From contig BROI01000034.1 of assembly GCA_027923505.1 (NCBI GenBank), positions 186,001 to 248,867 on the forward strand: a DNA stretch of 62,867 nt, in the 5' to 3' direction. The translations under genes were made by a program, and so were the position numbers. Shown in pieces: positions 14,280 through 56,759 of this stretch. The DNA comes from Mayamaea pseudoterrestris. Lineage: Eukaryota. The notes beneath the pieces were generated by a model. That model saw nothing but the letters and a program-made list of their open reading frames with translations. It was not told the origin of the DNA and ran no database searches. Position 1 is the first letter of the stretch, and each line of letters opens with the position of its first letter.

Positions 14280-14295
14280 GATTAACACTGTCTTG
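14280..14295 (+). promoter_or_regulatory. Copia-1 primer-binding site GATTAACA-CT-GTCTTG
   Basis: Abuts the 5' LTR. The GATTAACA core is shared with the PBSs of Copia-2 and Copia-4. Confidence 0.75.
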
Positions 14296-14428
14296 AGACT
14301 CATTGCCTCGGCATAGAGACTTTATCGACGAAGAGTACTATTGATTTACGAAGTAACGTGGATGCACGTTGGTTCTTGGCCCGGAAAGTTCCGCAGGTGA
14401 TAGCAAGAACATTGTCACGACGACAACG

Positions 14429-17400
14429 ATGGCGGAAACTCGCGCGCAGAAAGACGCGGCTTTTGCGCATGTTTACGAAGAGAACGTAGGCATTTTCCAA
14501 GATCCTCAGTTCAAGGAGTTATTCGACGAACTCGGAGTAGAATCGCTTACGCAATTGATCGAGATGGAGTACGACGATTTCGCGACGAAGTGGAACGTCA
14601 CGACGACGACAACGACGACGACTGACGATGGCGACAATGTCACGCAGGAAATGAGCGAACATTCGCTAACGAAGATGAAACAACGCACGATCACGAACGC
14701 GATCGAATGGTATTTGGCGCAAGAGTCGCCGGACATCAAGACTTGGTCGCAACTGACCACCGAAACGCTGGCGACGTCCGTCACAGCAGCGAACGAGTCC
14801 AAGCGCGCAACATTGCGGCGTGGGCAGCGGAAGCCGGAGCGGAAACCTCCAGCGAAGGAAAGCGAAACGGAATCCAGAAGGACGAATCCAAGGACTCCAC
14901 GCTAACGAACGAAGCGCGAGTAGCCGACTCGCCCGACAAGGTGCCACCGACGCGTGGGCGTGGCGGAAAGCAGTCACCGACATCCGTACTGGACCTCGGC
15001 GACGACGAAGACGACGAGAAGTATTCAGACCAATTTACGAAGTCTATCAAGTTCTCGGCGAAGGATTGTAAAGAAATGAAGCTGGATTCCTCGTGGAAAC
15101 AGTGGATTTCCGAGTTGAAAGTCATCGCTACATTGCACGACTTCCACGAAGTCTTTGACGACGATTATGACCCGAAAGAAAAGGGACCGAAGGAACAGAA
15201 GGCGTATGCAAAGAAGAATGTGTTTGTATACAGGATCTTCCTCACGCACTGTCGAACTCCGTCTGCATCACTCGCAGTACAGCAGTTCAAGAAGACGATT
15301 GACGGACGCGAAGTCTACCAACGATTGTGAACGCGATACGAAGAAGGCGCTACTGCTCACATCGAGAAGGAACGCGCGCGAACGGAACTGCAGGGAATGC
15401 GGCTGACCGAGAAGTGGTCACGGCCGACGATCGAATTTCTCGCACTGTTCTACAAGAAAGTCATCTGGCTGCTCGAAATGGACGCAGAAGCTCTGACAGG
15501 TTTACAACGATACGACATGCTACGCGATGCTTTCTCCGAGCACACTGGATTCAGCGCATCGCTAGCAGGTTTTGACGGAATGATTGCCATCAAGAAACAC
15601 ATGGGGCAACACGATTCGGAAGACAATTTCGCGCAGTTGTACGCGCACTTAGAAGAGTGCTGCATCAAGTATGACAAGAAACACCCATCGACGACGAAGA
15701 CTAAGCGCACAATCAATCAAGCGCAGTCTAGTGGAACGAAAGGAGGCGGCGGCGGCAATGGCGGCGCGACTCCAAGCGGCTTATCGGCGGAACGATTTGC
15801 AGCGATCATGAAGAAACCTCACGCAAGCGTGAAGGATGAAGTCTGGTTGGAGATGAAGTTCGATCAGTGAAAGCAGTTGAAGGACAAGCGTGCGACGGCG
15901 CCCAAGACACCCGAAAATGGATGGCGACCGCGCAACCAACGAGGCACGGCTACGACGCAAACGCAAGTCAACGCGGCGCATCAAGAGCGTCACGCGACGG
16001 AATCTGTAGCGAACGATCACGCAAGCGTTCCTGGCACGATTAATATTCAGCCAGGCAATAGTGGAATGTCAGTCCAAACGGCTGCACGATCGGTTCTGCA
16101 AGCGAATAATGCGAGTACTACAACTCAGCAAGTGACAGGATCGTTGACGACTGATAACACCGGACGAGGTACATTCAGCTTCAACATGCATCGTCGTATG
16201 CGCGTCAATCGCGCACACTACGAGCGGATCAACGAAGGCGCGCTCATCGACAGCGGCGCGAACGGAGGCTTATGCGGAGGAGACATGCTCGTCGTTTCGG
16301 AAACAAACGCCGAGGTGGATGTGACTGGTATTGACGATCATATTGTCCCAGCTCTCAAGATTGGCACTGCAGCTGGACTGACAAAGACCCTTAGTGGCGA
16401 AACCATTCTGCTTTTGTGTCACCAGTATGCTTTAAAGCGAGACGGACCAACGATTCATTGCCCGAATCAATTGCGCGCAATGGGACATCGTGTCGATGAT
16501 ATTCCGACCATGTTTGGCGGAACGCAACAAATTACGACGAACATTGGAGGCTACGTTTTGCCATTGGCGATTCGCGATGGCCTGGTGTACTTGGACGTGA
16601 CGAAACCCACGTTCGATGATTTGGATAAGTATCCGACTGTCATCATGACGTCGGACGTGCCGTGGGACCCAACTGTTTACGATGTCGAGCACGCGCACGA
16701 CGATTTCGACGAACGCGATCACGATTATGGATCTTTCGACGAACGATTCGACGATGACGGTATCACGCACCGCAATCGTCACACGCCGACACGCACTGGC
16801 GACGAACTTGACGTACTGATCAATCGGTGCGTGCGACACGCTCAGTTTTCACGCGTTAATTTGCGGAAGCTACGAAGCAAGGAACCGGACTATAATGCTC
16901 TTCGGCCATACCTCGGATGGGTCCCGACTGAGCGAGTTCAACAGACTTTACGTCACACGGAAGCATGGTATCATCTCAGCGAACATCCGCGATTACCATT
17001 TCGACACCTCACGAAATCACGATTTCCGGCCGCGAACGTTCAGCGGTTGCGCGAACTATTCGCCACGGACACGATACACTCTGACACGCCAGCTTTGGAT
17101 GATGGAATTCTAGGGCATGGGGGAGCTACTAAGATGCAGCTCTTTGTTGGACGAGAAAGTTTTTACACGCGCGGCTACCCGATGAAGTCGGAGAGCGAAA
17201 TGTCAAACGCGTTAGAGGATTTTATCCGCGAAGTGGGTGCTCCTAACGGACTGCTCAGCGACAATGCCAAGTCGGAGACTGGCAAGGCTGTGAGGGATCT
17301 CTGTCGGATGTACAATATTCCTCAAGTGACCACAGAACCGGGTCATCCAGAACAAAATCCATGCGAACGTCACACGTCGCACATTAAGCCAATGATGGAG

Positions 17401-20205
17401 AACCTCCAGCGAGATTCGGGTTCGCCAGGCCATTGCTGGGTTTTGCTGATTAAATTCGTAATCATGATTCTGAACGTCCTCGCAACGAAATCGCTGGGAT
17501 GGCGCACTCCAACGGAAGTTGCGTTCGGAAATTTGCCGGATATTTCGCCTTTGTTACATTTCAAGTGGTGGGAACCGGTCACGTTTGAGGCGCAGGGGAG
17601 TTTTCCCTCGGCGGTACGATCTGGCAACGGCCGATTCGTGGGCATAGCAGAGAATAGCGGTCCGCACATGACTTTTCTCGTTCTAACGGACGACACGCTT
17701 CAGGCGATTCCGCGCTCCAACGTGGTCTCGCGCAGCTACTTGTTACCACGAGAGTTGCCTTCCTTCCCTGAGTCTGGAGGGGAGATTTCTGAAGAAGCTA
17801 CACGCGCAAGCGAGCGAAATTTTGAAACTCCAGATCTTGCGACAGGACGCTACCATAGCACGAATGCGACAGAAAGTAGTCACGACAACTACGAAGGAAA
17901 CGACGACGAAACGATTCCGATGGCGAACCACGCCAACGTACCAGCAAAGTTCTTCAGAAGGGCTGAGCAAGAATCAGGGAATAAATGCCCTCTGTTCTCT
18001 CCAAGCGAACTCATCGGACGCACGTTCGTAAGGGAACACGAAAACGGTCAGAAAATGCGAGCGACTGTATGCGAATATATCGAAGTACGCGATAACGAGC
18101 TACTCGAAACGACGAAAGGTTTCTTGATCCAGATGGGAGAGGAGCCAGCGAAAGACTTAATAAGTTACAACGAACTGTCGGATTTAATCGAACGACAGAT
18201 GGACGAAGATATACGAAACGATCCGGCGACTCAGTGGGTATTCACGAAGGTAATCGGACACGAGCTTAATTTGAAACCGAACGATCCGACATACAAAGGA
18301 AGTTCAAGTAACGTTCTCGTCGAATGGACTGACGGAACGACGACGTGGGAGCCTCTCGCGATCATGAAGAAGGACGATCCGATAACGATCGCAGAGTATG
18401 GACTCAAGCACGGCTTACTCGACAAGCCAGGATGGAAGCAGCTGGAACATTACACTCGGAAGCGAAAGAAGTTTCAACAGATGGTGACAGCAGCGAAATG
18501 AAAATCGAAAGCAAACGGCGTACGCTACAAATTCGGCGTAAGGTTGCCGCGCAATTATAAAGATGCGAAAGCTCTCGACGAGATCAACGGCAACACGCTG
18601 TGGACGGATGCGATTCGAACGGAATTAAATCAGATAAATGATTACGACACGTTCGCAGATCAAGGAGTCGGTAAGGTTATGCCGGCGCCATGGAAACGAA
18701 TAAACGTGCACATGATATTCGATGTCAAGCACGATTTGCGACGGAAAGCACGACTCGTCGCAGGAGGACATATGACAGAGCCGCCGAAGGATTCAGTTTA
18801 CTCGGGCGTTGTGTCATTGCGAAGTCTACGAATGGTAGCGATGTTAGCGGAACTCAACGGTCTGGAACTGTGGGCAGCTGACGTCGGCAACGCATACTTG
18901 GAAGCGAAAACGAAAGAGAAGGTTTATATCGTGGCAGGTCCGGAGTTCGGGGAGCTCGAGGGTCACACGCTCATGATCGTGAAGGCATTATACGGTCTTC
19001 GCACGTCAGGCGCACGCTGGCACGAACACTTTGCAGACACGCTCCGCGACATTGGCTTCACGCCGTGTATCGCAGAACCGGACGTGTGGATGCGCGATAA
19101 AGGCACGCACTACGAATACGTTTGTGTGTATGTCGACGATTTAGCGATAGCGATGAAGAATCCGAAGGAACTAACGGATCTTTTAATTGAGAACTACAAC
19201 TACAAGTTGAAGGGTGTCGGTCCATTGGCATATCATTTGGGCGCAGACGTTTGGCGAGACGACGACGGCGTACTCTGCTTCGGAGCGAAGAAGTACGTCA
19301 CAAGACTATTAGCGAATTACAAAGAAATGTTCGGCGAGGAACCGCGACCGCAGACAAGTCCACTACGCGACGGCGATCATCCGGAACTCGACGAAACGAA
19401 AGAACTTGACGACGACGGAATTGCGAAGTATCAATCGATCATTGGTGCGTTGCAATGGGCAGTAAGTTTATGTCGATTCGACATTCACTGCGCTGTCATG
19501 ACTATGGGGAGATTCCGAGCTGCGCCACGAGCGGGGCACTTGGAACGGTTGAAGCATATTTGCGGATACTTACGACGATACCCGGATGGAGCGATTCGAT
19601 TCAACGTTTCGATTCCAACGGACGAGCGATACGCGACAGTTGACAAGATGGATTGGGATTACAGTGTGTACGGCAAGATCTGCGAAGAGCTTCCGTGGAA
19701 CATGCCCACGCCGCGTGGCAAGGCGGTGCGAATGTCAACGTTTGAAGATGCAAACCTGTACCACGATTACACGACGGGACGGGCAGCGATGGGCATGCTA
19801 CACATGTTGAATGGGACAGTCGTCGATTGGTTTTCGAAACGCCAAGCGACGGTCGAGACGGCGACGTACGGCTCGGAGTTTGTAGCAGCAAGAGTGAGCA
19901 CGGAGCAGATCATGGATCTCCGCTTCACGCTACGCATGTTGGGAGTTCCGCTCGACGGACCTTCATGGATGTTTGGAGACAACAAGTCGGTAACGCAAAG
20001 CAGCAACTTACCGCACTCTAGTCTGACGAAGCGACACAATGCACTGGCATTTCACCGTGTACGCGAGGCGATTGCGGCGGGAATTATTAATTTCAACCAC
20101 ATCATGGGAACGACAAACCCAGCGGATGTACTTACCAAATTTCTTCCGCGGGCTACGGCAAGCAAGCACTTAAAGAACCTGCTCTTCAAGGAATCGAACT
20201 ATTAG
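14429..20205 (+). pseudogene. Copia-1 gag-pol (one frameshift near 14780-14900, in-frame TGA at 15328, 15868, 18499)
   Basis: PR LIDSGANGG; IN ATDT...SDNAKSE...QNPCE; chromo-like VLVEWTDGTTTWEPL; RT KARLVAGG, ADVGNAYL, KALYGL, YVDD; RH FEDA, GSEF, GDN, NPADVLTK. The ORFs starting at 14707, 15397, 15877 and 18544 share one frame. Confidence 0.93.
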
Positions 20206-20222
20206 GTATGACTTGAGGGGAG

Positions 20223-20535
20223 TTGCAGGATGCGAACGAAAACAGCGAAAATCGGGCAAGTCACACCGAATGTCCGATAGGGTGACACAGCGGCACTCGC
20301 GGCTCACCACAGCCTCACGATCGCGTGATGCGTGGCAGCGACGGCTTCAAAGCGATTCAACGAGCATATTGCTGAAACTAGTGCAATATAGAGTAGAAAC
20401 AAGCAGACTTACTAAGCTTGAAGAGTTAAGAAAGCGATTTATTTGTCTCTCGTATTGTAGCAACTGCAAGCTTGGATTGGCCATCCAAGGACAGCTACAA
20501 GCGAAAGGTGCAACAATTTGATTTACAAGTTACAA
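20223..20535 (+). repeat. Copia-1 3' LTR
   Basis: Follows PPT GAGGGGAG and matches the 5' LTR. Confidence 0.93.
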
Positions 20536-22781
20536 AGTGGCTGTCGTCGGGGCGATCGAGACAGCGTCATTCTGATAGAAGATTGTACCAGGCACCGAGG
20601 CAGCTGCTTGTGACTGCTGGGTATTCGCGCGGTTTCCGTTGTTCGCGCGTCTTGTTGTTGCAGGTCTTGGGACGGCTTCACGTCGAGCCATGAGCTGAGC
20701 GTATTCGTCCTCGTTAAGTCGGCCGAGTCGTTCGTACATCATGTACGACCAGGGGGCCTGCAACAACTGTTCAAAGTTCAGATAATCACCAGGGAATTGT
20801 TCCCAATGCGCTTGCGTACCCGCTGCTGGTAGTGGCGCGGAAGAGCCTCATCCTCCGGAACCGCGGCCCGCTTGGGTGCCACGTCCACCGTCTCGTCCAG
20901 CACCGCGTCCGCCTTGGCCGCCGCATCCGCCTTGGCCGCCGCGTCCTCTGCCATGGCCGGAACCGCGTCCATTACCACGTGGCTGTTGGCGTTCTTCTTG
21001 CCCTTGTTCAACTTGGCGTTCTTGTTGTCGACGCGCAGAGCCTGCTGCAACAACATATCGAAAAGATAGTCATAATCTTCCGTTACGACGGTGTCTGGGT
21101 CACCGTTTGCACTAATGATGCATCGTCGTTCAAATGTCAAGTGCTGGTCGAATTTTGTGCACGTGGGGCCGAATTCTTTGTCACCTTCCACTGCAGCTCG
21201 GAGCCAGTAGTACTTCTTCTTGTCATCCGTCACTCCAGGACGGAACTCTTCAAGATTCTTCATGAGCTGTTCAATGTAGTTGAGGAACTTGTAGTGCCCC
21301 TTTGTCCAGGTCGAATCTAGGCAAATCGTCGCAAGCTTGGCTTGTAGTTCGTTCGCTTGGATGGTAGCTAACTCGCCGGAACCAAACTTGGTCGCGAGAT
21401 CGCGGTAGACGCTCTGAGCGTCAGACTTGTCAGTGTACTTCATTAGGAGCGATTGGTATCCAGGTACTTTGAGACAGTTGCGAAACGCAGTGTACATGAA
21501 GATTTGCTGCTCCTTAAACTCTTCCTTCTCTTCTTCCGTGACTGGTGCGTACTTGCTGTCGAGCACGTTAGAACAGCCATGGAGCTTGGCGATTGCCTTG
21601 GTAGACGCGCTCCAACTCAACCACCCGTGGGGATGTTGGAACATTTTGTAGTCCTTGTAATCTCGCTTCGTCTTGATGTTCGAGAATCGTCCCTTGGCAT
21701 CTGCTTCCTTTTCGGCCTTCTCAGCCTTCATATTCTCATTTTCGAGTTGCTTGGCAAGTAACTCGCTTGCGTCCTCTTGGACTCGAGGATGTAATAACCT
21801 TCATCACGCTTTCGACCGGTTTTTTGTTCGGTGAGTCTTTCTTGGAATCGCTCAAGCTTGCCTAAATCAAGCGTATACCACGCTTTGGTGTTCGGGGCTC
21901 CATCTTGCATGTTAAACCATTCGCATGCATCGAGGATAAGGTTCACGTAGACTGGTGCTAGTTTCATTTCATATCGTACTGGGGCGGCGGCTGCTTGTTC
22001 TTCGGCCGGTTTGTCGGCCGGTTCTCGTCTGGGTGCGCGCCGGTCAGGTTGGCCACGCTCAGGGGGTGGGGATGGCAGTTCTTTCGACCCAGTAGGGGGC
22101 TTCAAGTTGCTCCTTGGTCAATCTCAACATCTGGGTAGTGGTGGTTACATTCCAAAACAAGAACGCTTCCTGGATGTCTCGCCAAAAAACGTTCACGCAG
22201 AGCGCTTGCAGAGCTTCCGCAGTAACCAAAACCATGATAGTGAATACCTCGCTTTCCGCAAGTCCTTACTCAAACAACAACCGCTCTCAATGCAGTCGAG
22301 CCTTATACGATCCTTTTCTACGCGCTCGTGCCAAGTATTCGGATTGACGACGTCGCAAGGAATCTGCTCTTTCTCTCTCAATTTCTCGATTCTTTCACTC
22401 TCTCTCTTTCGCACAGCTCTCTCAGGTCAAGACAAGCTAGCAAGACTGTTAATCTGACACGATATCATCAGACGAACCTTTATTCCAGCAACTACAATGG
22501 ACTAGGAGCAATCAACCTCTTCGTCCAGCGTAAAGCAAACAAACAAACTAAATTGCTAGAATAGTGCATGTTACTTGCTACTCTACTCGTGCGCTTCTTT
22601 CGTTCTCACTGGGTTCACGGTCGAGGTTCACGCCTCGATTGTCAGCGATTTCACTCATGTATGTGAGGATTCGGTCACAAGTGTGACTCAACCCTGCACA
22701 GGATTAAATGCATACAAAACACAGGTAGCTAACCGTCTTGTCATGAGACGCAGGTCAACTCAACTCAATAATATTGTGTCA
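20536..22781 (-). mobile_element. Truncated Ty1/copia 'Copia-2' (5' LTR, PBS, frameshifted gag; pol lost at the Copia-1 junction)
   Basis: LTR 22455-22781 has termini TGACACAATAT...ATATCGTGTCA. PBS GATTAACAGTCTTGC lies at 22454-22440. Gag pieces resemble Copia-1 gag: WLSWSASTKAIAKLHGCSNVLD vs WKQWISELKVIATLHDFHEVFD, and both carry ASVPGTI. The outer end abuts the 169-bp satellite. Confidence 0.88.
22440..22454 (-). promoter_or_regulatory. Copia-2 primer-binding site, complementary to a tRNA-Asn(GUU) anticodon arm
   Basis: The plus strand reads G-CAAGA-CT-GTT-AA-TC, the layout of tRNA positions 26-40, and directly abuts the LTR end. Confidence 0.75.
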
Positions 22782-23897
22782 CTACAAGATGGTAGGCTTG
22801 GCTGGTGTCTCAGGGGATGGCAATGTATCTGGTGACAACTTGTCACCAGTCTCAGCCCGCAGATGCCGTGACATTCAAACGCACCTACAGCAAGATCTCT
22901 AGGTGACCAAAATACACCAGAATGGTGCCAACATCATTATTCTGCCTGCGGTACAAGATGGTAGGCTTGGCTGGTATCTCAGGGGATGGCAATGTATTTG
23001 GTGACAACTTGTCACCAGTCTTAGCCTGCAGATGCCGTGACATTCAAATGCCCCTACAGCAAGCCCTGTAGGGGCCCGAAATACTCCAGAATGGTGCCAA
23101 CATCCTTATTCAGGCTGCGCTACAGTATGGTAATCTTGGATGGTGTCTCAGGGGATGGCAATGTATTTGGTGACACTTTGTCACCAGTCTCAGCCCACAG
23201 ATGCTGTGACATTCAAACAACCCTACAGCAGGCCTGGTAGATGCCCAAATTACACCAAAACAGTGCCAACATCATTAGTTAGGCTGCGCTACAAGATGGT
23301 AATCTTGGCTGGTGTCTCAGGGGATGGCAATGTATTTGGTGACAACTTGTCACCAGTCTCAGCCCACAGATGCTGTGACATTCAAACACCCCTACAGCAA
23401 GCCCTGTAGGTGCCCAAAATACACCAAATTGGTGTCAACATCATTGATCAGGCTGCGCTACAAGATGGTAGGCTTGGCTGGTGTCTCAGGGGATGGCAAT
23501 GTATTTGGTGACAACTTGTCACCAGTCTTAGCCCGCAGATGCCGTGACATTCAAACGCCCCTACAGCAAGTCCTGTAGGTGCCCAAAATACACCAAAATG
23601 GTGCCACCATAATTATTCAGGCTGCGCTACAAGATGGTAGTCTTGGCTGGTGTCTCAGGGGATGGCAATGTATTTGTTGACAACTTGTCACCAGTCTCAG
23701 CCCGCAGATGCCGTGACATTCAAACACCCCACCAAATTGGTGTCAACATCATTCGCCCCTACAGCAAGCCCTGTAGGTGCCCAAAATACTCCAGAATGTT
23801 GCCAACATCATAATTCAGGCCGCGTTACAAATTGGTAGTCTTGGCTAGTGTCTCAGGGGATGGCAATGTATTTGGTGACAACTTGTCACCAGTCTCA
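22782..23897 (-). repeat. 169-bp satellite (subfamily A-like), inverted relative to 1-13942
   Basis: Reverse complement of the monomer (CTACAAGATGGTAGGCTTGGCTGGTGTCTCAGGGGATGGC...), about 6.5 copies. Confidence 0.96.
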
Positions 23898-24293: not shown

Positions 24294-24805
24294 TGCTGAA
24301 GCCTCGTTTGTGGCGGCCTTCACTTCAGGTTTGAGAAGCCTAGCTGACGAACAACCTGACATCATCACAACCCTAACACATGACGTGAAAGGAGATTGAC
24401 CCGAAAGATACTATGACCCTGATTCAGACCCGGAGGAGACCCCGGATGTTAGAGGTCGCATTTTACCAGAAATAAGGAGAACAAACTTACGGCCTGATTC
24501 GATAAGGAGAATGCCCGGAAGAACGGAGATTCGAACCGTAGCCGAGTACCAGGCATCTACAGCGAGGGAACAACCAGGAACCTCCATCTGCCGAGATGCA
24601 GCTATGAAAGGCCTGATGTACACGAGCTCTCCCGAACATTCGGTTCCGACAATCAGACGGAACTAATTACGCACGACTAGATTTTAACATTCGAGCAAAC
24701 AAGCTCACTCTCCGAAATAACAAAGCTGTTACACCGTAGCATCTTTAGAGGGTCGCAAAGCATTTTAGTCAACACGGATCCGTCAACGAGATCTGAGTCC
24801 AAGCA
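24294..24805 (+). repeat. Copia-3 5' LTR
   Basis: Direct repeat of 34402-34913. Confidence 0.96.
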
Positions 24806-26384
24806 AAGTCGCGACTTGCCGTTGGACCAGAGCAAGTAAGTACCGATCGTCGAACGAACGAATTGAACGAATCGCCGAGTGAGTGTCCGGACGCGGAATC
24901 AACCACCTGTGATTAAAGAGAACGAAAGATCAGAACGGAAAAGAGAGGCAAGAAAACGAGCCCTTTTCATCTTAAACAGGCAATCAAACGAACGAGCAAA
25001 CGAACGTACACGAACGAGTAAGTGAATCGCCGCGCGAGTAACGAACGAGAATCCAAAACGAGAACGAGAACGAATTTCATTGCAAGTGTTGAAAGAGAGC
25101 GAATAGCGTTGTGAGACAACCCTTTTGCTTATATTTGACACAGATACACCAACCGACAAAAGTACCGTCATCCTTGCCTGCCGCATATCTGCCGCCGCAA
25201 GAGCATCAACGAAGCGACCGTCAACGCCGTCGCCCAACGAATCCATCATTACCATCACCGAAAGATCCAACGAAGCCATTCCGGCTGCTTACACGTCAGC
25301 AGCTATCGATCAACCTTCTCGATCAACAGAAGGAGCCAATCAAGTGAGAATCGCAAACGTCCATCAAGAACAAGTGACGAGCGATCCATCCTACTTTCTA
25401 CCCGACACGCCATTCGTCACTCGACAGAATCGAGTCCAGTCACACACTTGCCCTTGTCTTGTCTGCGAAAGCAACAGACGAGTTCCAAGACCTCCAGTGG
25501 CACGCCCCGACCCAGTCGCATCTGCTCCGATAGACGACTCAAGAGAAGTTCAACAAGAGTTAGACGAGCTTTTCCACCAAGTTTCACCGACACGAACAGT
25601 TGTTTCGCATTCCTTACCAAGCGATTCAAACTCCTGGACTGACGAGCATCTTCAGCAAGTCCTTGACGGCTTAGACGACAACTGGCAGCCTTGCGCCACT
25701 GATCGTCGACGCATACTCGATCCGTTCTACCGATCCGAGTACATCGAACCAACACCAACAACGAGACGCATTGACGACGAAGATTTGCAGCGAAACGATC
25801 GCTTCCGTCAACAGCAGCAGCATCAGTATCGCCGAGCACAAGAGCAACGCCGTCAAGCTCATCAACGAATCGACCAAGCTCGAAGAATCCAACGAACGCA
25901 ACAAGTTGAGCAAGTACATCGTCGAGCAACGCAACAAGTCCACGCTCCACGAAGAACTTACGCTCAAGTAGCAAGAAACAACAACCGACGCCAACAAATC
26001 AACGAAGCACGACCACAAGTTCCATATCAACATCGCCTGGAACGCTTGCAAAGAGAAGTACGCAGTCTTCAATTGCAAGTCAATCGTCAACAGCAACAAC
26101 AGCACCAACAAACGTACCGACGAGCTCAACAAGTGAGCGAGCAACGAAACAATCAAAACCGTCAAAACCCGCGTCAACGACACGTTCGTCCACGCTCAAC
26201 GAGGTTCGCTACAGTCAACAGATCGTTAGCTAACCAACATCACGAGACACGTCATCAACGTCTGACCGCCAACCGTCAAGTTAGCTATCAGAACCGAGAT
26301 TACCGCCAACAGAACAACGAAAGTCGACAAGTCCCTCCACGCCGACACTCATCTACAGGAACAACAGTCGGATACTTCCTTTAG
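24774..26384 (+). CDS. Copia-3 putative ORF0: Met-free Gln/Arg-rich protein. Predicted exons 24774-24835, 24980-25017, 25144-26384 (446 aa if started at ACG 24774)
   Basis: Stop-free frame 25125-26384 with no Met. Two GTAAGT...CCCTTTT..ACAG intron candidates keep the frame open back to 24681. Start site and splicing are inferred. Confidence 0.55.
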
Positions 26385-26461
26385 ACAAAGAACAAACAAC
26401 ATCTATCAAGACATAACAACGCCGACACTTATCTACCCGAAGAATACAAAACAAATTCAAC

Positions 26462-29400
26462 ATGATGACCGTAGAGACCCTTTGTCTCAAGACACCCAAG
26501 CATCCAAACACCGCCGAAGGTCATTCATCCTGGTTCAACGTTTTAGTAGCAATTGCTGAAGCCGGAGGATGTGTTAGACCGATTACAAGTACGAGAGATC
26601 CTCATCTACCAGTTACCGAAAGAGAGGAAGATTTGCCAGTTGTTTTAGACGTAAATGACGGCAATGTCAATCAACAAGAAGCAGACGCCTCGGTTGCGGC
26701 ACGCGCCGAAGCTGAAGCTGCAAGAACACACAACAGCAAGCTGATGAAGTTCCTTACCATCGCCCTGTCAACTAACGAGCTGAGCGGCATCATCAACAAC
26801 GCCAAGACCGCCGGCTACCCAAGAGGAGAAGCACATCTAGTCCTTGCCATACTTGAACGACGTTTCCAACCGAATCGAGTAATCGCCAATACCTTGTTCC
26901 TCCAACAACTTGGAAGCCTCTCTATGGCTAGACCCAACGAAAACCCAAGAACGTTTCTAGATCAAATGTTTGCAGCATCATCACAGTTTGGCCAAGAACT
27001 TACCGGACCGATCCTTTTCAGCAACATTATGAACAAGGCCCCGTCACCATATCGCGTTGCATTAATGACTCTCCAAGAGCGGACGCCCGACAATCCTTTA
27101 ACAGTGGAACAAATCGAACGACAAATGGCGTCCACCTACATCACATCTTTCGCAACCAAAAATGCCTTGGATAGAGATGAAGACCATCGCGAAATGGGAT
27201 TATATGCAGACAACAACAATCGTCCTCCAAGAAACTATCAAGACCGAGACCGACCGCGAGACCAAAACCGCGGCCAGTATCGAGGCAACAACGGAGGCAA
27301 CAACGGATATCAACAAGGACGACAAGGCCAATACTACCAACAGCAACCGCAATTCGAATCAAGACACTTCAATGGCCACTGCAACTGCTGTCGCAAGTGG
27401 GGCCATAGAGAATGCAACTGTTGGGAGCGCGAAGAAAACGCCGACGCAAGACCGTCGAATTGGGTTTCTTGTTTGACAAGTGAGGAACACCAAGCCATTC
27501 GAGACCGAGACAATCGTTATCGACTCGACCGATCGCCAGAGCGACCAAGGGAGTCGTATCCAAGACGTCAAGAGCCAGAGCAACGACGTGGAAATGATCG
27601 CCAAGGAAACGACCGAAACGATCGCAATGATTCACGTCGACCTGAACGACAACGCGAGACCACAAGACGTGACGACCGCCGCCGCGACCAAGGCAGTGAA
27701 AGACGAAGCCAACAACAAGACACTCGAAGAAGAGATGATAGAGATCGCAATCGTCGAAGCGATAGAGACCGTCGAGATCGAGGCGATCGTCAACGTCAAG
27801 GAGGAAGGGAGCAAGCAATGCCCGCCGTTCGAGAAGGATTTCTCCGTCCAGGCGGACGCATACCAGACCGACTGCCGCAAACACAAGAGCGCGCAAGACC
27901 GAACGAAGAAGCTTCATTGTCAACCATTGGAACGGGTGAATATCTGTTATCAAGCATTCGCGTTCGTCATAGCGTGAGTCGAGCAGCATCAAACGGAGCA
28001 TACACGTTAACTGACAGCGATCATCTACAAGACGACGACACATCACCCGCACCTCAAGCGACACGGCTCAATCGTCCACGTAAAACAAAATCCAAGCAAG
28101 TATCCAACAACAAAATATCATGGACACCTGGAATGCCTTGGAGCTTGTGTGAATCTGACACGGAAGACGAAGATGAATCAGACAACGAATGCAGCACTAT
28201 CACCGCAGTAGCAAACAATTACAGCTGCACTTTCGGCAAAGAGCCCATTGTTCCACCACATCTTCGATCCTTCGTAGCATACCCTGCTCTCACAAGCTTT
28301 GACAATGACCAAGAGACCGTCAATATCCCAGCATCAAGCATGGCAACGACTGAAGATGACACTGAAGAACCAAGTGACGCGCCAAAGGAAATTGACTGTC
28401 CACCGCATGAACCAACAGAAGATCCAACCGAAGAGCCAACTGACGATCCTACCGAGGAGCATACAGAAGCATCCTACCCTGACCATAACGCACTAGAAGA
28501 AGAATGGTTAGCGGCTGGTTATGTGCAATGGCGAGGAAGTTGGATACCTCGAGAAGACTTGACGCCAAGCGCTATGGAACGCCTCGCTCAGCACTTGCCG
28601 TCCTTTGCTCCTCCACAACTAAACATACCGACACCGCTGGTCTACACGTTTCCACCAGACGAGGAACCGCCACACCATTTCATACAAAGCATTTTAAATG
28701 TTGAGCCACTTCTGTACACCATGTCGCAAGCAGTTGTCAGCACACTGGAAGAACTCGAAGAACACTTCGGCACTTGTGTCGACAGTGGGTTCACACATCA
28801 AGAAGCCATCGAATCAACTTGCGGATTGTACCACTTCTTCACCGGTTTGCGAGTATGGGATACAGAACGAGTAGAAGTCTCGTACGCACAGTCAGACGAA
28901 GCTTTACTCCCCACAACAACGTCGGATGAAGCTTTCTTGCCCACGACTGCAACAACAGAAGCGATGACTAAAACTCAGTATGATTCGGACGATCCGGACG
29001 CCATTGTTGAGTATACCAATTCAAGCGACTCAAGCGCCAGCAGTTTCAACAGCAACGACACGTTATACTTTCACGCGCGGATTCCTCGACCACCATGGGA
29101 TCACCTTTATCCATCACCAGAATATGGCGATGACAACGAAATCCCTCAAGAAGAATACGATGCAAACATCCAACAAGTACGCGAAGACGAAGCGAACCTT
29201 GATGACCCTGAAGCAAGACAAAGACTGTTAGTGATCGAGCGCGCCAGCACGGCACGTTTCATGGAAGAAATGGAACATTGGTTTGCTCAAGCCATTCAGC
29301 GTCAAGGTCACCCAATTTCAATGGAACAATTTGACGAAGCCATCAACTTTGGCATAGAACAAGAAGTCGCACGTCGCGTCTGCGAAGGCACAACAAGAAC

Positions 29401-32400
29401 CACATACAGCATCGCGCAAATCCTTCGTGAAATCGTCGTTGGATATGTAATGGACTTGTCCATGCGCCGTCTTTGCAAATCGACATGCCGTGGGTACTTT
29501 CCCTTCAAGAACAACCGCAACCCAGACGACAGCGATGATGAAGACCATGTCAATGACACCTCAATGTCTGCCCAACTTGCACGAACGCAGTCCTACATTG
29601 CGAATGCGTTAGACCGTCGAGACGAGGAAGCAGCCGCAGCAGCTGCAGCCAACAACTCTTCAGGGAACTCCAACACGAACAACGCATCAATTTCAAGGAC
29701 CGACAGCACGCTCGCCCTCACAACCACCTTTAATGACTTTGCATTGAGCGCCGTCGTGCGGTCCCTCGGTGTTCCAAATAATATCGACCTTCTATCACAC
29801 CCTGAAATCTTCATTGGCGACACCGGAGCCACTATTGATACGACACCATACCCCGACGGACTCTTCGACACATCTACCATGCACAACGAATCCATAACCA
29901 TGGGTAACCAGACCGTCGCGGATATTCAAGCCATTGGAAAGCTCCGAGTCGTAGTCTGCAATCACACTGGCAAGACCCTTTACCCGGCTGTTCTACAGCA
30001 CGTCGCATACGCCCCTGATTGTGGATACAATTTGTTCAGCATCACTCAACGAATGAAACATGGATGGAGTCTTCACGGCGACGCCGGTCGCATGGCACTA
30101 ACCAAGCCAGGCAATCAACCAATCGTTTTCGACATTGTCATCAACACGCGCAAAGGACAGCTCTACTGCATCCTTTTCAAACGTATCTTTACACCGCCAA
30201 AAGAGACTCCCAAACCACGCATTGAATACGCCTTTGCCAATCCGGCGACTCGACAACTCCCACCACGTCGCCTTTCCTACATGCAAGCACATCAGCTTCT
30301 CGGCCATCAAGGGCCACGCACCACACTAGCAATTGCTGAGCACCTCAAATGGGAAATCACCGGCTCTGCCAAGGATAAATGCACACCATGTACGATCGGC
30401 AAGGCCAAGCGCCGTTCGTTTCCGCAGGTATCGTCTCGCGAGCGCGCCACAGTCCCCGGCAAACATTTGTTCCTTGACCAAACTTCTTTCCGTGTTACCA
30501 AGATTGATCCGAAACTACAACAAGGCCTCCGTCGCCAATGGACATTAATAGTCGACGAGAAGACTGGCTTCAAGCACTCGTTGTTTCATCGCACCAAAGA
30601 CGCCATGGCCGAGCACGTCTGTGAATTGTTCGCTCAATGGTTCCACCAAGGAAAACCGATTAAGTATCTCCGAATGGACAACGCCGGTGAAAACAAGTTG
30701 CTTGCCAAACGCATGTTCAGTTCTGACTGGCAATTCAACATCAACATCGAATGGACTTCCGTCGACTCGCCGCAACAAAACGCCCCAGTCGAAGTCAGCT
30801 TTCCAACGTTGACCAACCGCACTCGAGCCAACATGTACAGCGCCAACATACCGCCTCTTCATCGCTTGTATATTGGACCCGAAGCATTCGACTATGCCAC
30901 CAAGCTTGACGCCCTTGCCATGATAGACGTTAACGGCGTCCTTGCCACTCGACACGAGCACTTTCACGGCGTTGCTTCGCCGATTATTGGAAACCTTCAA
31001 ACATTTGGAGAGGCTGTCACTGTTGTACTTCCCGGTATTCGCACGCATCTATCCGATAAAGGTTTTCAAGGCATCTTTGTCAACTACAGCAGCAACCATC
31101 CGAAAGACTGCTATCGAGTTTACAACCCGGAAACCAAGCGCACACACGACGTTAAGCACATCACTTTCTTGAAACGTCCCTACTTTCAACGCCGCACACG
31201 TCGTGAAATCGTCCCACCAGCTATCGTTGATGTTACATCTGAAAGCTCCGACTCCAGCAGCATGATAATTGAAGTCATTCAAGCCGACGCACCTCACCCA
31301 CTTACGTGTTCCACCACCGCAACACCGATATCCAATCCGCCTGCCCCAGCGGACGTCCAAGCTGGGGAGGTACTAGATCCGAACGCCGAAACTGACGAAT
31401 TTCCAAACGCGGATGACGAGCTTGAACTTCCCGCTGCGCCAGACGCCCCTGCAGACCAAGGCAATCCGCAAGAATCAACAGCAGCGTCTGATGCGCCGAC
31501 CGATCCAATCAACAACAGTGCACAACCGTCAGCCGCACCAGCAGGAAATAGGGCCACCGAAGCAGCACGACGCCACATCAGAAGGGTCAGAGACGAAGCT
31601 GAACGTCGACGACGAGGACATGTCCAGTACACAAGATCAGGACGACCGTCAAGACCACCGACAAGATATGGCCAAGACGAAGATCAAACCCAGTACACAA
31701 GATCTGGAAGACCGATACATCCACCTGCACGTTATGGTCAAATCGCTGCTGACATTGATCCACTCGAAGCTGATGAATACGATTATGAGTCTGAAAACGA
31801 GTCCGACGCCGATCGCGAGTCCTACTCAAGTTCATCGACGGCATCAACTTATTCGCGTACAACAAGTAAATCAGCCGACGAACGCAACAGTTACGGCACA
31901 TGCAGATACATGAATTACTCTGAATCATCGACGAGTCGATCAATCGTTAGCGAACGAAGCATTCGAAGCATAAGCGAGTCATTCAATTCAACTGACAGTG
32001 ACTGCAACAGCGACGACAGCTCAAGCGACGACAACGCTTTGCTTCATTTGACCAACGATGAGTTCCAGCAATTAACTCTGGAAGAACAAGACGAAGTTAT
32101 AGCATACTATTCGAGCAGTGAAAACGATGGAAGAATCCAAATGCCATCATGGTTGACGACAGCCCACACAAACGACGACGAATTCGACAGCCAGTACGAC
32201 ATTGAAAGCGCATCATCTGCCCAACGAAGCGCACCTCTCTCGTCAATCGACGTCGAAACTGTTACAACCACCCGAGCATCGAATGTTGATAGCAGCAAAG
32301 CTCCAAGCCAAGAACTCGGGAAGGGTACGACCGACACAGAAGAGTCATCCATTGAAATAATAGCAACATGCCCAGAACCGAGTGGAGCAGAAGATCAAGC

Positions 32401-34774
32401 CGAAAATAAATCGCACCTCGACAGTCATCTTGAAATCGACAACGGATACAACCAGAACGAACTCGAACAACCAAACCGGTCCGCTCAATCTAAGCACAAG
32501 GAATTTATGCTCGACCATGAGGACCCAGCATTACTACGCAACCTCATCTTCAACGATGTACCAACAAGTATTCGAGTCATAATCGACGAACGCAGTGTTC
32601 CTCCATGCCTACCGACCGATTCAAACTTCGAGTACGCATTTCCAGCATACCAAGCAACACCCACCGCAACAACTCCGACCGACGCCTTCGACAAACACAT
32701 AGAAGACATCTTCAGCGACGAAACACCTGATACTGTTGAATATGCTTTCGTAGGAGCAGGCATTGGCGGAGGATTTGTCACCACCGACGAACTACACGCA
32801 GTAAAATTCAAAGACGCCGTCAATGGTCCGGAGCGCGAACACTGGTTCAAAGCGATAGAAAAAGAGCGCAAGAATTTGGAAAGCCGAGAAGTCGCTATCG
32901 CTGTTCCGCGCAGCCAAGTACCAAGAGACGCCGCACTATTGACAAGCAAGTGGGTATTGCGAAAGAAATCCGACGGAACCTACAAAGCAAGAATAACAGC
33001 ATGAGGATTCCAACAACGCGACGGCGAGCATTACGACAGTCAATCAATTTCGTCGCCAGTCGCTTCACCAACCACAATAAAGCTCATCACAACAATCTCA
33101 GTAATGACAGGATGCGTTCCGCATATAGTCGACATCAGTGGAGCCTTTCTATACGGCACATTTGACGACGACCATCACGTTTACATGGAGATTCCAGAAG
33201 GCTTTCGCGAGCACTACCCGCCCGGACATGTTTGGAGACTTGTCCGCACACTATATGGAACGAAACAAGCCGCAAGAGCGTTCTGGGACAAGCTGTTGTC
33301 AGCACTCCGCAAGATGGGATACGCAAGAAGCGTTGCCGACCCGTGCCTATATTTCAAGTGGGTCAAAGGGCAACTAATCCTAATCGTGTCATGGATCGAC
33401 GACTTATACATCAGCGGACCAGACGACCTCATCAAAGCCACGAAGATAGAACTGAAAGACCATTTCGCATGTGAAGATTGCGGACCGATCAAGGAGTACA
33501 TTGGCTGCAAAGTCGAAATAGGCGACAACTACCAACGATGGACACAACCAGTCCTACTTCAAAGCTTGAAAGACGAATTTGACATACCGACAAAAGGAAA
33601 AGAACCAAGACTGCCTGCACTACCTGGCAGCATCCTACCAAAACTCGACGAAGACGAAGAACTAAGTAACAGACAGCAAACGATCTTCCGTTCAGCAAAC
33701 GGCAAGCTTCTATACCTCGGACGATGGTCAAGACCCAAGGCCCAGTACGCCATTAATGCCAACTGCCGCTACATGAAACAAGCAGGCAAGACACACATGG
33801 CAGAAACAAAACGCACAATGAGATACCTACTATCAACACCAAATAGAGGAAGACTATTCCTACCGACACGAAAGTACCAAGGTCCCAACCATCTATTCCG
33901 CATTCGAGGAATGAGTGATTCGGATTACGCAAAAGACCCCGAGAAGCGCCGCAGCCAAACAGGAGGCATCACCTTTGTAGAAGACGTCCCTGTCTCCGAG
34001 ATATGCCATCTTCAAAAGCTCATATCGCTCTCCGTAACGGAAGCCGAAATGGCCGCAGGAACTGAGACCGCTCAAGACATGCTTCACGTCAAGAACCTAC
34101 TTGAATCAATTGGCTTACAAGTGGAGCTACCAATGATTCTGGAGATCGACAATAGCGGAGCAGTTGATATCGCCAACACTTGGAAGACAGGCGGAAGAAC
34201 AAGACACCCAGACGTACGCCACAACTTCATCCGAGAGCTTAAGGAAGCAGGCATCATACGAGTGAATTGGATTGAAACCAACTTAAACACAGCAGACATT
34301 TTCACCAAGAACCTGGACCAAGTTACCTTCAACCGCCACGCACGAGTACTGGTTGGAGAGGACGAATACATGCCTGAGTCCATCCTCCCCAACGGGAAGG
34401 GTGCTGAAGCCTCGTTTGTGGCCGCCTTCACTTCAGGTTTGAGAAGCCTAGCTGACGAACAACCTGACATCATCACAACCCTAACACATGACGTGAAAGG
34501 AGATCGACCCGAAAGATACTATGACCCTGATTCAGACCCGGAGGAGACCCCGGATGTTAGAGGTCGCATTTTACCAGAAATAAGGAGAACAAACTTACGG
34601 CCTGATTCGATAAGGAGAATGCCCGAAAGAACGGAGATTCGAACCGTAGCCGAGTACCAGGCATCTACAGCGAGGGAACAACCAGGAACCTCCATCTGCC
34701 GAGATGCAGCTATGAAAGGCCTGATGTACACGAGCTCTCCCGAACATTCGGTTCCGACAATCAGACGGAACTAA
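26462..34774 (+). pseudogene. Copia-3 gag-pol, intact except one in-frame TGA (33002-33004) in RT
   Basis: Zinc knuckle CNCCRKWGHRECNC; PR IGDTGAT; IN AHQLLGH..CTPC, MDNAGE, QNAPVE; RT KARITA*GF, DISGAFL, LYGTKQA, WIDD; RH SDSDYA, TEAE, IDNSGA, NTADIFTKNL. The frame continues into the 3' LTR. Confidence 0.93.
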
Positions 34775-34913
34775 TTACGCACGACTAGATTTTAACATTC
34801 GAGCAAACAAGCTCACTCTCCGAAATAACAAAGCTGTTACACCGTAGCATCTTTAGAGGGTCGCAAAGCATTTTAGTCAACACGGATCCGTCAACGAGAT
34901 CTGAGTCCAAGCA
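34402..34913 (+). repeat. Copia-3 3' LTR
   Basis: Follows the PPT and is followed by TSD GACCA. Confidence 0.96.
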
Positions 34914-36940: not shown

Positions 36941-37473
36941 AGAATCTGCAACTTGTGGTGTTGGCCATACCCACAGTGGAGGCCGTACCCATGGTGTCAG
37001 CCTCCAGGCAGTCCTTTTTGCACCATTTGAGACTATGCACCTGTCAATGGCATACCCTGGACATGTTTTGCCTGACTCGTTGGGTATTTGGGTGGCCAGG
37101 GCATGGGGCGTTTGACAGGTCAGAATCCACAACTTGTGGTGTTGGCCATACCCACAGTGGAGGCCGTACCCATGGTGTCAGCCTCCAGGCAGTCCTTTTT
37201 GCACCATTGAGACTCTGCACCTGTCAATGGCATACCCTGGACATTGTTTTATCTGACTTATTGGGTATTTGGGTGGCCAGGGCATGGGGCGTTTGACAGG
37301 TCAGAATCTACAACTTGTGGTGTTGGCCATACCCACAGTGGAGGCCGTACCCATGGTGTCAGCCTCCAGGCAGTCCTTTTTGCACCATTTGAGACTCTGC
37401 ACCTGTCAATGGCAAATGATTGGTCATGTTTTGCCTGCCTCATTGGGTATATGGGTGGCCAGGGCATGGGGCG
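36941..37473 (+). repeat. 181-bp satellite variant (3 copies), diverged relative of the 180-bp family
   Basis: AGAATC recurs at 36941, 37122 and 37303. Shares GCCTCCAGGCAGTCC, TGTCAATGGCA.ACCCTGGACATGTTTTGCCTGACTC and GGGTGGCCAGGGCATGGGGC with the 180-mer. Confidence 0.92.
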
Positions 37474-39664: not shown

Positions 39665-40602
39665 AGGCTACCAACATTTCAACCATGAGGCTACCAACAC
39701 CAAACCCTGAGGGTATAATTTCAACCATGAGGCTATTATGAGGCTACTAGCCCTTTGAACCATGAGGCTACTCACACCAAACCATGAGGCTGCCATTTCA
39801 CCCATGAGGCTACCATGAGGCTACCAATATTTCAACCATGAATCTACCAACACCAAACCATGAGATTACCATTTCTACCATTTCTACCATTTCAACCAAG
39901 AGGCTACCATGAGGCTAACATAGGGCTACCAACCTTTCAACCATGAGGCTGACATTTTAACCATAAGGCTACCATGAGAGCCCCATGGTACCCTCATGGT
40001 TTGGTGTTGGTAGCGTCATAGTTGAAATGTTGGTAGCCTCATGGTAGCCTCATGGTTGAAATGGCAGCCTCACGGTTTGGTGTTGATAGCCTCATGGTAG
40101 CCTTATGGTACCCTCATGGTAGCCTCATGGTGGATGTTGTAGCGTCAAATACCCATGGTACCCTCATGGTAGCCTCATGGTAGCATCATGGTAGCCTCAT
40201 GGTAGCCTCATGGTTTGGTGTTGGTAGCGTCATAGTTGAAATGTGGGTAGCCTCATGGTAGCCTCATGGTTGAAATGACAGCCTCACGGTTTGGTGTTGG
40301 TAGCCTCATGGTAGCCTCATGGTACCCTCATGGTACCCTCATGGTACCCTCATGGTTTGGTGTTGGTAGCGTCATAGTTGAAATGTTGGTAGCCTAATGG
40401 TAGCCTCATGATAGCCTCATGGTTGAAATGGCAGCCTCACGGTTTGGTGTTGGTAGCCTCATTTAGCCTCATGGTAGCCTCATGGTAGCCTCATGGTAGC
40501 CTCATGGTAGCCTCATGGTACCCTCATGATACCCCCATGGTTTGGTGTTGGTAGCATCATAGTTGAAATGTTGGTAGCCTCATGGTAGCCTCATGGTAGC
40601 CT
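39662..40602. repeat. 11-bp minisatellite (CCATGAGGCTA / TAGCCTCATGG) arranged as an inverted repeat centred near 39980
   Basis: The left arm reads CCATGAGGCTA and the right arm reads TAGCCTCATGG. Interspersed ACACCAAA/TTTGGTGT and ATTTCAA/TTGAAAT modules flip with it. Confidence 0.93.
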
Positions 40603-41670
40603 GCACCAACCAGACTATCAAGGAATGGAACTTAAGTGCTGGTGTCCAAAGCGCCTCATTTCAATGACGGTTGACGTTGTCAGCAGCTCCAAAGGGCCAG
40701 TGTGACCCAGTGTCGTGTTGCTGATGCAGGTGATTCGGTACGAAGTCATTTAAATGTTGCTTAAACTCTGTCCGCTTTGGCAATTAGATAATTTGCGTCT
40801 GTATAAAGTATATAGAGCAAAGAATGGAATGAGGAAGTCATCTCAATGTTTTGCATAAAATGTGAGGTCTCCGTTCATGGGCTACTTTACTTTAAATACG
40901 CATCAAAACTCAACCAAACATGGCAAATCAATCCATTACACTATAGAGCAAGTGTATGCATAGTATCAGTGTCAAAAAGGACCCATGGTGCGATAGCAAG
41001 AATGGATTGGGGGGGGCAACAAAAAAAGAACGTATTTTTTCAGAAACGGAGCTGCGGCAGGACCAGTACGCCTTGGACGACAAAACCGACTGCACACTTG
41101 AATCTGTCGTGACTTACTTAGTAGATCAAGTGTTTTAAATCTATAGTTACTTCCTTCTGTGTGCTATAAACTGGAATGACGGATGCTGCTGCAAATGGTG
41201 GATGGTTGGTCGATCCGCGGCGTCGTGAAAACCTGAAAAATTTACTTGAAACAAAACGGCAATATTGAAATATACATTTTGGGCTGGTGTGCAAGAAGGG
41301 ATGTGGAATATAGCAAGAACAATGGCTAGGACCATCATTTTATGGTTCGTATAACAATGAATTGGAGACTATACCGTGCCATGGAGCCCTTCCACTACCA
41401 TGGCTGGATAGCATTGGCCTGTTTGACTGATCATTGATGCATTGATGCCTCCTTCATCAAGTGGTTGGAGCCTGGTTGGTGTTTGGCTGTCAACTGGTGC
41501 AGTTGTTTCCACACATTCGCTGGAGCATTGGCCAGAGTGTGGCCAGAGCATGGTGCTTGTAAATCCGATGAAATATTGGGGAGGGTTTTGTCATGGGTCA
41601 AGGGTTTGGCCATGCAGGTGCTCATAGGATGCTCCACTGGTGCACCAGTGTTACCTTCTAAGCAGTGGTT

Positions 41671-41838
41671 TTGTTGGCAGCCTCAAAGTTTTGTTGGCAG
41701 CCTCATGGGTTTGTTGGCATTCTCAAGGTTCTGTTGGCAGCCTCATGGCTTGATTAGCAGCCTCAAGGTTTTGTTGGCAGCTTCATGATCTTGTTGGCAG
41801 CCTTATGGATTTGTTGACAGCATCAAGACTTTGTTGGC
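41671..41838 (+). repeat. 20-bp minisatellite TTGTTGGCAGCCTCAWGGNT, 8 copies plus a partial ninth
   Basis: Units start every 20 bp from 41671 to 41831. The ninth is cut by Copia-4 sequence. Confidence 0.9.
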
Positions 41839-42357
41839 TACGACGAGCAGCGTACCCGAGGGGAGTGACAAGTCGCAGAGCGGCGAAGTCAAGAGCCCAA
41901 ACCCTAATTAGCTTGTGTCAAGTCCGCAGCTGTCGTACGTGACATGTGAATGAAGAAAGTGCGCAACCGTCATGTGGATGCGTTGTATGAATGGAATGAC
42001 TGATTACGACTGATGTAATGTGATTGAAAGAAACGGATTGATCGGATGATCTTCCGAGTGGTCGATGTAGCGATGTAGCGATAAGCTCACAATATAGAAC
42101 TACAAGTTTGCGACGAGAGTGCAGTTGTATTTGTGTAGTGGCGAGCGCAAGACTATTCGACGAGCCATCTCCATCAAATGCTGTACAGACCGTGGCCAAG
42201 GAACCTGTATTGGAGCTTTTTGGAGGTAAGACATTGACTGCGAAATCGTCAACGGTGTTAGATTAACATTTCAGTGCTTTGAGAGCAAGAACGAGCGAGG
42301 GAGCTATTGTGACACATTCGTCTGCAGCGAGTCCGATTCCTCTGATCAACCTCCACC

Positions 42358-56722: not shown

Positions 56723-56759
<37 letters not shown>

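Follow-up and report, generated by a model that had tools for sequence, protein, structure and literature searches.

A candidate half-molecule tRNA-Asn primer binding site in three Copia elements of Mayamaea pseudoterrestris

The primer chosen by a long terminal repeat (LTR) retrotransposon is both a marker of its lineage and a point of host control, and transfer RNA (tRNA) fragments are known both to prime and to inhibit such elements. A stretch of 62,867 nucleotides (nt) from Mayamaea pseudoterrestris (assembly GCA_027923505.1, contig BROI01000034.1, positions 186,001 to 248,867; hereafter the window) raises the question of which primer is used by three of its Copia elements, Copia-1, Copia-2 and Copia-4, whose internal regions all begin with the same 8-mer, GATTAACA. 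The analysis presented here points, with a probability that we put at about 0.7, to priming of all three from the 5' half of the host cytosolic tRNA-Asn(GUU), ending at C40, and not from the CCA end of a tRNA.

A conserved motif at the LTR/internal junction

An earlier note on this DNA had reported one motif behind the 5' LTR of each element, and we found all three where it had placed them. The putative primer binding sites (PBSs) and the LTRs that adjoin them are as follows.

14280..14295, forward strand: Copia-1 PBS, GATTAACA-CT-GTCTTG; the complement of tRNA positions U33-C40, a 2-nt insertion, then the complement of C27-C32
22454..22440, reverse strand: Copia-2 PBS, GATTAACAGTCTTGC; exact complement of tRNA-Asn(GUU) positions 26-40, with the 8-mer part at 22454-22447
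42261..42268, forward strand: Copia-4 PBS, GATTAACA; 8 contiguous nt, with a possible interrupted extension to 42280
13966..14279, forward strand: Copia-1 5' LTR, 314 base pairs (bp), ending ...GTTACAA; 311/314 identical to 20222-20535
20222..20535, forward strand: Copia-1 3' LTR, from self-comparison of the window and reading of the junction
about 22785..22455, reverse strand: putative Copia-2 5' LTR, present as a single copy between a 169-bp satellite and the PBS; it starts TGTAG... and ends ...TGTCA, the end being inferred
41836..42260, forward strand: Copia-4 5' LTR, 425 bp, ending ...GGTGTTA; 96% identical to 48541-48965
48541..48965, forward strand: Copia-4 3' LTR, from self-comparison of the window and reading of the junction

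In Copia-1 and Copia-4 the 5' and 3' LTR copies part at the very next base, and thus no spacer separates the LTR from the motif. The zero spacer that had been claimed for all three elements is firm for these two, which have LTR pairs; for Copia-2 it depends on the inferred LTR end. The LTRs had also been described as unrelated, and a blastn comparison at word size 7 agreed: no two elements showed similarity in LTR or leader. Its sole matches were two short ones between Copia-1 and Copia-4 within the coding region for reverse transcriptase (RT), and the gag region of Copia-2 matched neither of the other two.

The 8-mer occurs four times on the two strands of the window, against a mean of 1.87 in shuffled sequences, 11/100 of which reach four copies. 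Three of the four copies lie exactly at LTR/internal junctions; the remaining copy, at 61640, is intergenic. Given the 8-mer at one junction, the naive probability that two other independent elements would also carry it at offset 0 is about 2e-10. Because the LTRs and leaders of the three elements share no similarity, we count GATTAACA as a short motif that has been kept at one functional position while the sequence around it diverged completely, and the post-LTR motif is a real, non-chance feature of these elements. As the earlier note had observed, the TGG of a CCA-end PBS is lacking: the 40 nt that follow the LTR contain none in Copia-1, Copia-2 or Copia-4.

Complementarity to the tRNA-Asn anticodon arm

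The complement of the Copia-2 15-mer reads as G26, the 5' strand of an anticodon stem, the loop CUGUUAA, U39 and C40, and the stretch that lies opposite GATTAACA corresponds to tRNA-Asn positions 33-40 (...UGUUAAUC). The anticodon-arm geometry proposed for this sequence held when it was set against an actual gene, as the 15-mer pairs at 15/15 positions with positions 26-40 of a eukaryote-like tRNA-Asn (contig L058).

We searched sequence collections with a 17-mer representing the full arm predicted from the Copia-2 15-mer, its stem completed by pairing (5-bp stem, loop CUGUUAA). Viral contigs gave 57 exact matches, 46 of them in tRNA-Asn(GTT) genes called by ARAGORN; the base preceding the arm is G in 32/46 of these genes, as it is in the Copia-2 PBS. 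Among the 120 matches listed for metagenome contigs, 61 fell in a tRNA with the arm (59 Asn(GTT) and 2 Ala), and the remainder of those listed were mostly coding-looking chance matches or truncated tRNAs. Eukaryote-like tRNA-Asn genes were found on contigs L058, L059 and L155 as tandem copies, each followed by a T5 run. When the Copia-2 15-mer itself was searched against the viral contigs, 32/98 matches lay antisense in tRNA-Asn genes, and the corresponding control 15-mers of Copia-4 (0/65 matches) and Copia-1 (0/49) had none in tRNAs. The predicted arm is a common natural tRNA-Asn arm. Giant-virus-type contigs (L015/L099, L084 and L140) also carry eukaryote-like tRNA arrays, which have a conserved spacer motif and include a tRNA-Asn with the same arm.

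Predicted duplexes with tRNA positions 21-40 had energies of -26.0 kcal/mol for Copia-2, -18.9 kcal/mol for Copia-1 and -15.7 kcal/mol for Copia-4, against means of -6 to -8 kcal/mol for shuffled sequences (-6.2 for Copia-1 and -7.0 for Copia-4). Copia-3, an element of another Copia lineage in the window, served as a negative control and did no better than its shuffles (-9.2 versus -8.4 kcal/mol). When only the sequence outside the 8-mer was shuffled, the extended pairing of Copia-2 stood out clearly, 5/1000 shuffles being as good. A comparison of the leaders with the available part of the tRNA found no further complementarity of at least 7 nt outside the PBS.

A scan of the window for tRNA genes found none. 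The host tRNA was sought in contigs of public runs that contain window sequence, aligned to L058:70-230 at a likeness of at least 80%. Run X1 (organism A) and runs X2 and X3 (organism B, from a second study) contain 0.75, 0.72 and 0.45, respectively, of the sampled words of window positions 50001-60000. Each of the three has a contig piece that aligns to L058:120-177 over 58 nt with one differing letter and no gaps; it covers tRNA positions 8-64, comprising the D arm, anticodon arm, variable loop and T arm. The sequence flanking this piece supplies a perfect 7-bp acceptor stem unlike that of the bait, a discriminator G and a TTTT run 6 nt downstream, with no encoded CCA. Given the acceptor stem, the discriminator G and the T run, the contig is a nuclear-type tRNA-Asn gene. 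The existence of a host tRNA-Asn with the required arm had been set beforehand as a condition for half-tRNA-Asn priming, and such a gene, matching the bait at 57/58 positions, is present in all three runs, the place of the differing letter within the piece being unassigned. The T stem, with a compensating change, is a plausible site for it, because host base 65 differs from that of the bait. Run X4 yielded no contig piece on the L058 bait and is not counted as evidence.

Runs X1-X3 also contain a second tRNA-like gene, which aligns to L058:136-176 with 36/41 identity (5 differing letters) and has another acceptor stem, T arm and flanks. A tRNA-Lys and a second Asn isodecoder are both possible identities for this gene, which could bear on the short matches of Copia-1 and Copia-4.

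Proposed half-tRNA-Asn priming and its alternatives

By its position the motif is the site of the minus-strand primer. In the proposed mechanism the 3'-OH of that primer would lie opposite the first post-LTR base and would be that of C40, which requires cleavage of the tRNA within the 3' strand of its anticodon stem. A cut between positions 40 and 41, made either before or after annealing, would give a 5' fragment of tRNA-Asn ending at C40. The last 8-15 nt of this fragment would pair with the element RNA, over U33-C40 in all three elements and as far as G26 in Copia-2. RT would extend the 3'-OH of C40 into the U5 part of the LTR and produce minus-strand strong-stop DNA, as it does in copia and Ty5 with a half-molecule of initiator tRNA-Met. 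We infer the existence of the half-tRNA, its role as primer and the exact cleavage site from the position, conservation and complementarity of the motif and from the tRNA-Asn gene in the runs that contain the window.

Several points weigh against this reading. The claim that all three elements carry the complement of the arm stood in full for Copia-2 alone, and Copia-2 is a truncated fragment with an inferred LTR end. In Copia-1 the match is broken after 8 nt by the 2-nt insertion and resumes for only 6 nt; in Copia-4 it amounts to 8 contiguous nt, 6/8 pairs being A-U. Beyond the 8-mer, pairing in these two elements is at most suggestive and not significant, with 68/1000 (Copia-1) and 77/1000 (Copia-4) shuffles as good. 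If the differing letter of the host tRNA piece were placed at random, about 15/58 positions would fall within the PBS-complementary part. Attribution of that gene to the host rests on its recurrence together with the window in three runs from two studies, a pattern that a shared contaminant could also produce. All copies are decayed: Copia-1 has three in-frame TGA codons, Copia-4 has frameshifts and Copia-2 is truncated. None of these copies is therefore evidence that the PBS is active. Eukaryotic tRNA-Asn, moreover, normally carries queuosine at position 34 (Q34) and N6-threonylcarbamoyladenosine at position 37 (t6A37), which should weaken the pairing and block copying of the primer. As t6A37 is also present in initiator tRNA-Met, the same objection applies to the accepted half-molecule primers from that tRNA, and the modification argument does not separate the cases.

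We also found no further element with a definable LTR/PBS junction that would show the site to track a clade. An RT query of viral contigs returned no relative, and RT alignment against genome contigs returned three Copia relatives (L178, L179 and L180) that are 56-59% identical to Copia-1. L178 begins within gag, L180 consists of 1.2 kb of RT only, and L179 holds two adjacent related elements with no definable LTR pair. GATTAACA is absent from all three, an absence that is uninformative either way because none of them includes an LTR/leader junction. The three are short contigs filed under the names of bacterial metagenome-assembled genomes (Rhodobacter, Weeksellaceae and 'bacterium') and are probably eukaryotic contigs that were mis-binned.

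Among the alternatives, it is unlikely that the 8-mer, or the 9-mer that includes the terminal A of the LTR, is some other leader signal (for packaging, dimerisation or a U5-leader hairpin), with a different primer in use and the likeness of Copia-2 to the tRNA incidental. Only 8 nt are common to all three elements, a conserved hairpin or palindrome takes the place of a tRNA PBS at this very position in fungal GalEa Copia elements (PMC5445492), Copia-3 has a perfect 12-nt palindrome there, and the LTR end of Copia-4 can form, by eye, a 5-bp hairpin with the 8-mer. That hairpin is not kept in Copia-1 or Copia-2, however, whose folds differ, and GATTAACA is not palindromic. The GalEa 'Conserved Hairpin Site' is likewise a short conserved non-CCA sequence right after the Copia 5' LTR, but it is palindromic together with the last LTR base and has no tRNA match (PMC5445492), whereas GATTAACA is non-palindromic and has one. 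The GalEa palindrome joins the last LTR base to the first ~9 internal bases, and AGATTAACA at this place is not self-complementary; it is Copia-3, and not Copia-1, Copia-2 or Copia-4, that resembles GalEa. No other primer site is present, moreover, and the extra 7 nt of Copia-2 and the GTCTTG of Copia-1 continue the same tRNA arm. That arm is, in addition, a real and widespread tRNA-Asn arm that is present in the host runs. A half-molecule primer from another tRNA with a near-identical arm, either an organellar tRNA-Asn or a tRNA-Lys(CUU), is very unlikely in our estimate. Opposite base 34 each of the three elements has a C, which can pair with the G34 of Asn but not with the C34 of Lys, and the nuclear-type tRNA-Asn gene of the host runs matches the bait almost throughout; reverse transcription in cytoplasmic particles, as generally understood for Ty and copia, favours cytosolic tRNAs. 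What speaks for another tRNA is that the arm is shared by many AT-rich or bacterial-type tRNA-Asn genes, some of which may be organellar, that the second tRNA-like contig resembles the centre of the bait, and that a tRNA-Lys is already implicated at a closely similar site. This site is the PBS of fungal FunCo1, ATTAAGAGTCT, described in 2017 as complementary to an internal region of tRNA-Lys (PMC5445492). Its single difference from the Copia-2 sequence ATTAACAGTCT is the base opposite anticodon position 34, and it has the same arm geometry and the same place directly after the LTR. The two differ in that the FunCo1 tRNA is Lys(CUU) and not Asn(GUU), in that its printed site starts one base later (opposite U39), and in its fungal hosts.

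Self-priming of the Tf1 type, in which the 5' end of the element transcript folds onto the post-LTR sequence and yields the primer after cleavage, has been predicted for some Ty1/copia lineages, among them TAR (excerpted main text of PMC6317226). The Tf1/Sushi and plant TAR elements share with those described here the lack of a CCA-end PBS, but they need a PBS complement at the transcript 5' end. The earlier note had named such a complement as grounds for rejecting half-tRNA-Asn priming, and we saw no sign of one: the best complement to the opening 8, 10 or 12 post-LTR bases within each element's own LTR still has 2-4 mismatches, 63 to 500 of 500 shuffled LTRs are as good across the three elements, and the exact reverse complement of the 8-mer occurs nowhere in the window except at the PBS sites themselves. 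We consider self-priming highly improbable. Chance, finally, would require an AT-rich 8-mer to turn up three times with no connection between the cases. Its fourfold presence in the window is in itself not unusual, but in three cases it stands right at an LTR end (offset 0), and two of those ends are exactly defined; the match also extends along a real tRNA arm. The junction position of the copies effectively refutes this explanation.

To our knowledge, half-tRNA priming has been demonstrated experimentally only for initiator tRNA-Met, in copia and, reportedly, in Ty5, and the primers of both elements are said to end in the register proposed here, at position 40. The Candida element Tca2 reportedly uses a fragment of tRNA-Arg. 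For Drosophila copia the half-molecule of initiator tRNA-Met was found experimentally (Kikuchi 1986, as cited in an excerpt of PMC10275265), and for yeast Ty5 the same primer is annotated in an excerpt of PMC13017519. Like copia and Ty5 in these excerpts, Copia-1 and Copia-4 have a Ty1/copia-type pol, with an RVT_2 domain in both and an integrase match upstream of RT in Copia-1, and the primer of all three elements would have to be a cleaved 5' tRNA fragment. The three differ from copia and Ty5 in that the tRNA is Asn(GUU) and not initiator Met, and in that only 8 nt are common to all three. According to the excerpted main text of Neumann et al. (2019, PMC6317226), half-molecule tRNA PBSs occur only in Ty1/copia lineages, are lineage-specific, and rely on cleavage within the 3' strand of the anticodon stem to supply the primer. 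Osser, Bryco and Gymco-II use 1/2 tRNA-Met; the plant lineage Bianca uses 1/2 tRNA-Ile, a non-Met elongator half that was accepted on in-silico grounds. A lineage-specific primer type fits the different site in Copia-3, which is of another lineage. The same excerpted text does not have Asn among the half-molecule primers, and tRNA-Asn appears in it only under PBSs that are mostly complementary to tRNA 3' ends (2% of elements).

We found no report of a half-tRNA-Asn primer in the literature, although the supplementary per-element PBS tables of PMC6317226 and PMC5445492 could hold one. Among papers on diatom and microalgal transposons, the main texts of PMC2806351, PMC8147415, PMC7017206 and PMC5963040 mention neither PBS nor tRNA, and that of PMC5776459 expands 'PBS' in a figure legend only. 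The novelty suspected in the earlier note survives in this respect, but is smaller than was thought, with half-tRNA-Ile (Bianca) and an internal tRNA-Lys region (FunCo1) already in print.

If half-tRNA-Asn priming is correct, the tRNA-Asn half would be the fourth tRNA used in this manner, the host range of the mechanism would be wider than animals, fungi and plants, and anticodon arms of the xUU-AA-U loop family (Lys, Asn) would have been reused. The host should then contain a 5' fragment of tRNA-Asn ending at position 40. The LTR end followed by GATTAACA would provide a simple annotation motif, one that is missed by standard PBS finders, which seek CCA-end complements. A broader proposal, which we regard as rather unlikely, is that an entire clade of Copia elements in the host, and perhaps in related algae, uses the tRNA-Asn(GUU) 5' half ending at C40. 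The 8-nt complement of U33-C40 could be enough for this, aided by discontinuous pairing that reaches as far as the D stem, and retrotransposition would depend on anticodon-stem cleavage of a single elongator tRNA. As tRNA halves rise under stress, clade-wide priming of this kind would link stress directly to the Copia bursts of diatoms. Such stress-activated bursts have been described (Maumus 2009, PMC2806351), in a main text that is silent on priming.

Element architecture, decay and surrounding repeats

The remaining features of the four elements are given below; the two purine tracts were read directly from the sequence.

15871..20205, forward strand: Copia-1 pol (rve, then RVT_2), in a single frame that is open from 14626
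20215..20221, forward strand: Copia-1 polypurine tract GAGGGGA, abutting the 3' LTR
20778..21800, reverse strand: Copia-2 gag-like open reading frame, 340 amino acids (aa), with a Gly/Arg-rich tail
46961..47779, forward strand: Copia-4 RT (RVT_2), E 1.4e-20
48526..48537, forward strand: Copia-4 purine-rich tract GAAGGACAAGAA, near the 3' LTR
24294..34913, forward strand: Copia-3, comparison element of another Copia lineage, with 512-bp LTRs 99.4% identical and the target-site duplication GACCA

In Copia-1, Pfam searches matched rve in 15871-18501 (E 4.3e-4, below the gathering score) and RVT_2 in 18502-20205 (E 5.9e-26). The pol of Copia-4 is collinear with that of Copia-1; the longer segments are about 28-53% identical at the amino-acid level, and frameshifts and stops interrupt the Copia-4 pol. 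Copia-3 has RVT_2, Pol_BBD and SH3_retrovirus domains. Copia-2 is a gag-only fragment, interrupted by Copia-1 at 20535/20536, and its second LTR is absent from the window. No match to Pfam was found for the gag regions at E<=1. A word-index search of the Copia-2 gag against longer proteins returned no match, and its relatives, 785 at E<=0.001, came from a full HMMER search. Thirteen long relatives were scanned for domains: the 3 of at least 1,500 aa have RVT_2 downstream of gag, and the other 10 have no Pfam match. Since RVT_2 is fused to gag relatives in this way, Copia-2 is probably Copia-type.

Directly after its 5' LTR, at 24806-24817, Copia-3 has the perfect 12-nt palindrome AAGTCGCGACTT, which recalls the GalEa 'Conserved Hairpin Site' (PMC5445492). 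A stretch starting with TGG, TGGACCAGAGC, begins at 24823, 17 nt past the LTR; a CCA-end PBS set off by a long spacer is one possible reading of it. The post-LTR sequence of Copia-3 was also tried by hand as an anticodon arm in three registers, none of which joins U33, a purine at position 37 and stem pairing.

The internal in-frame stops of these young elements are all TGA (15328, 15868 and 18499 in the Copia-1 pol frame, 33002 in Copia-3, 44742 and 47777 in Copia-4), and the terminal stops are TAG or TAA. The TGA of Copia-3 lies within the RT domain just before the GF motif and may derive from CGA; the residue at this place in Copia RTs is, we assume, usually Arg or Lys. CpG to TpG or CpA changes account for 3/3 differences between the LTRs of Copia-1, 11/15 substitutions in Copia-4 and 1/3 in Copia-3. 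The restriction of the stops to TGA, together with LTR changes that are mostly at CpG, suggests methylation-driven decay rather than recoding.

The four Copia elements are nested among satellites in a pericentromere-like landscape. Arrays of the 169-bp satellite occupy 1-13891, 22782-23897 and 37473-39665, the blocks on the right having the opposite orientation to the one on the left. The intervals 23896-24294 and 34911-36348, 36941-37479, and 39662-40602 hold two more satellites, of about 180 bp, and a complex repeat. Copia-3 interrupts an ~180-bp satellite with a clean 5-bp target duplication. Copia-1, with LTRs 99% identical, has no target-site duplication, being flanked by ATCCC or TCCCG on the left (13961-13965) and AGTGG on the right (20536-20540), and only 74 bp separate it from the left satellite. 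The missing duplication and the short gap suggest recombination or deletion at this flank after insertion into Copia-2. To the right of the repeats lie ordinary host genes, encoding EF-1-gamma/GST-C (50214-51116, reverse strand), Coq4 (51976-52800, forward strand) and an S-adenosylmethionine (SAM)-dependent methyltransferase (56660-57673, forward strand).

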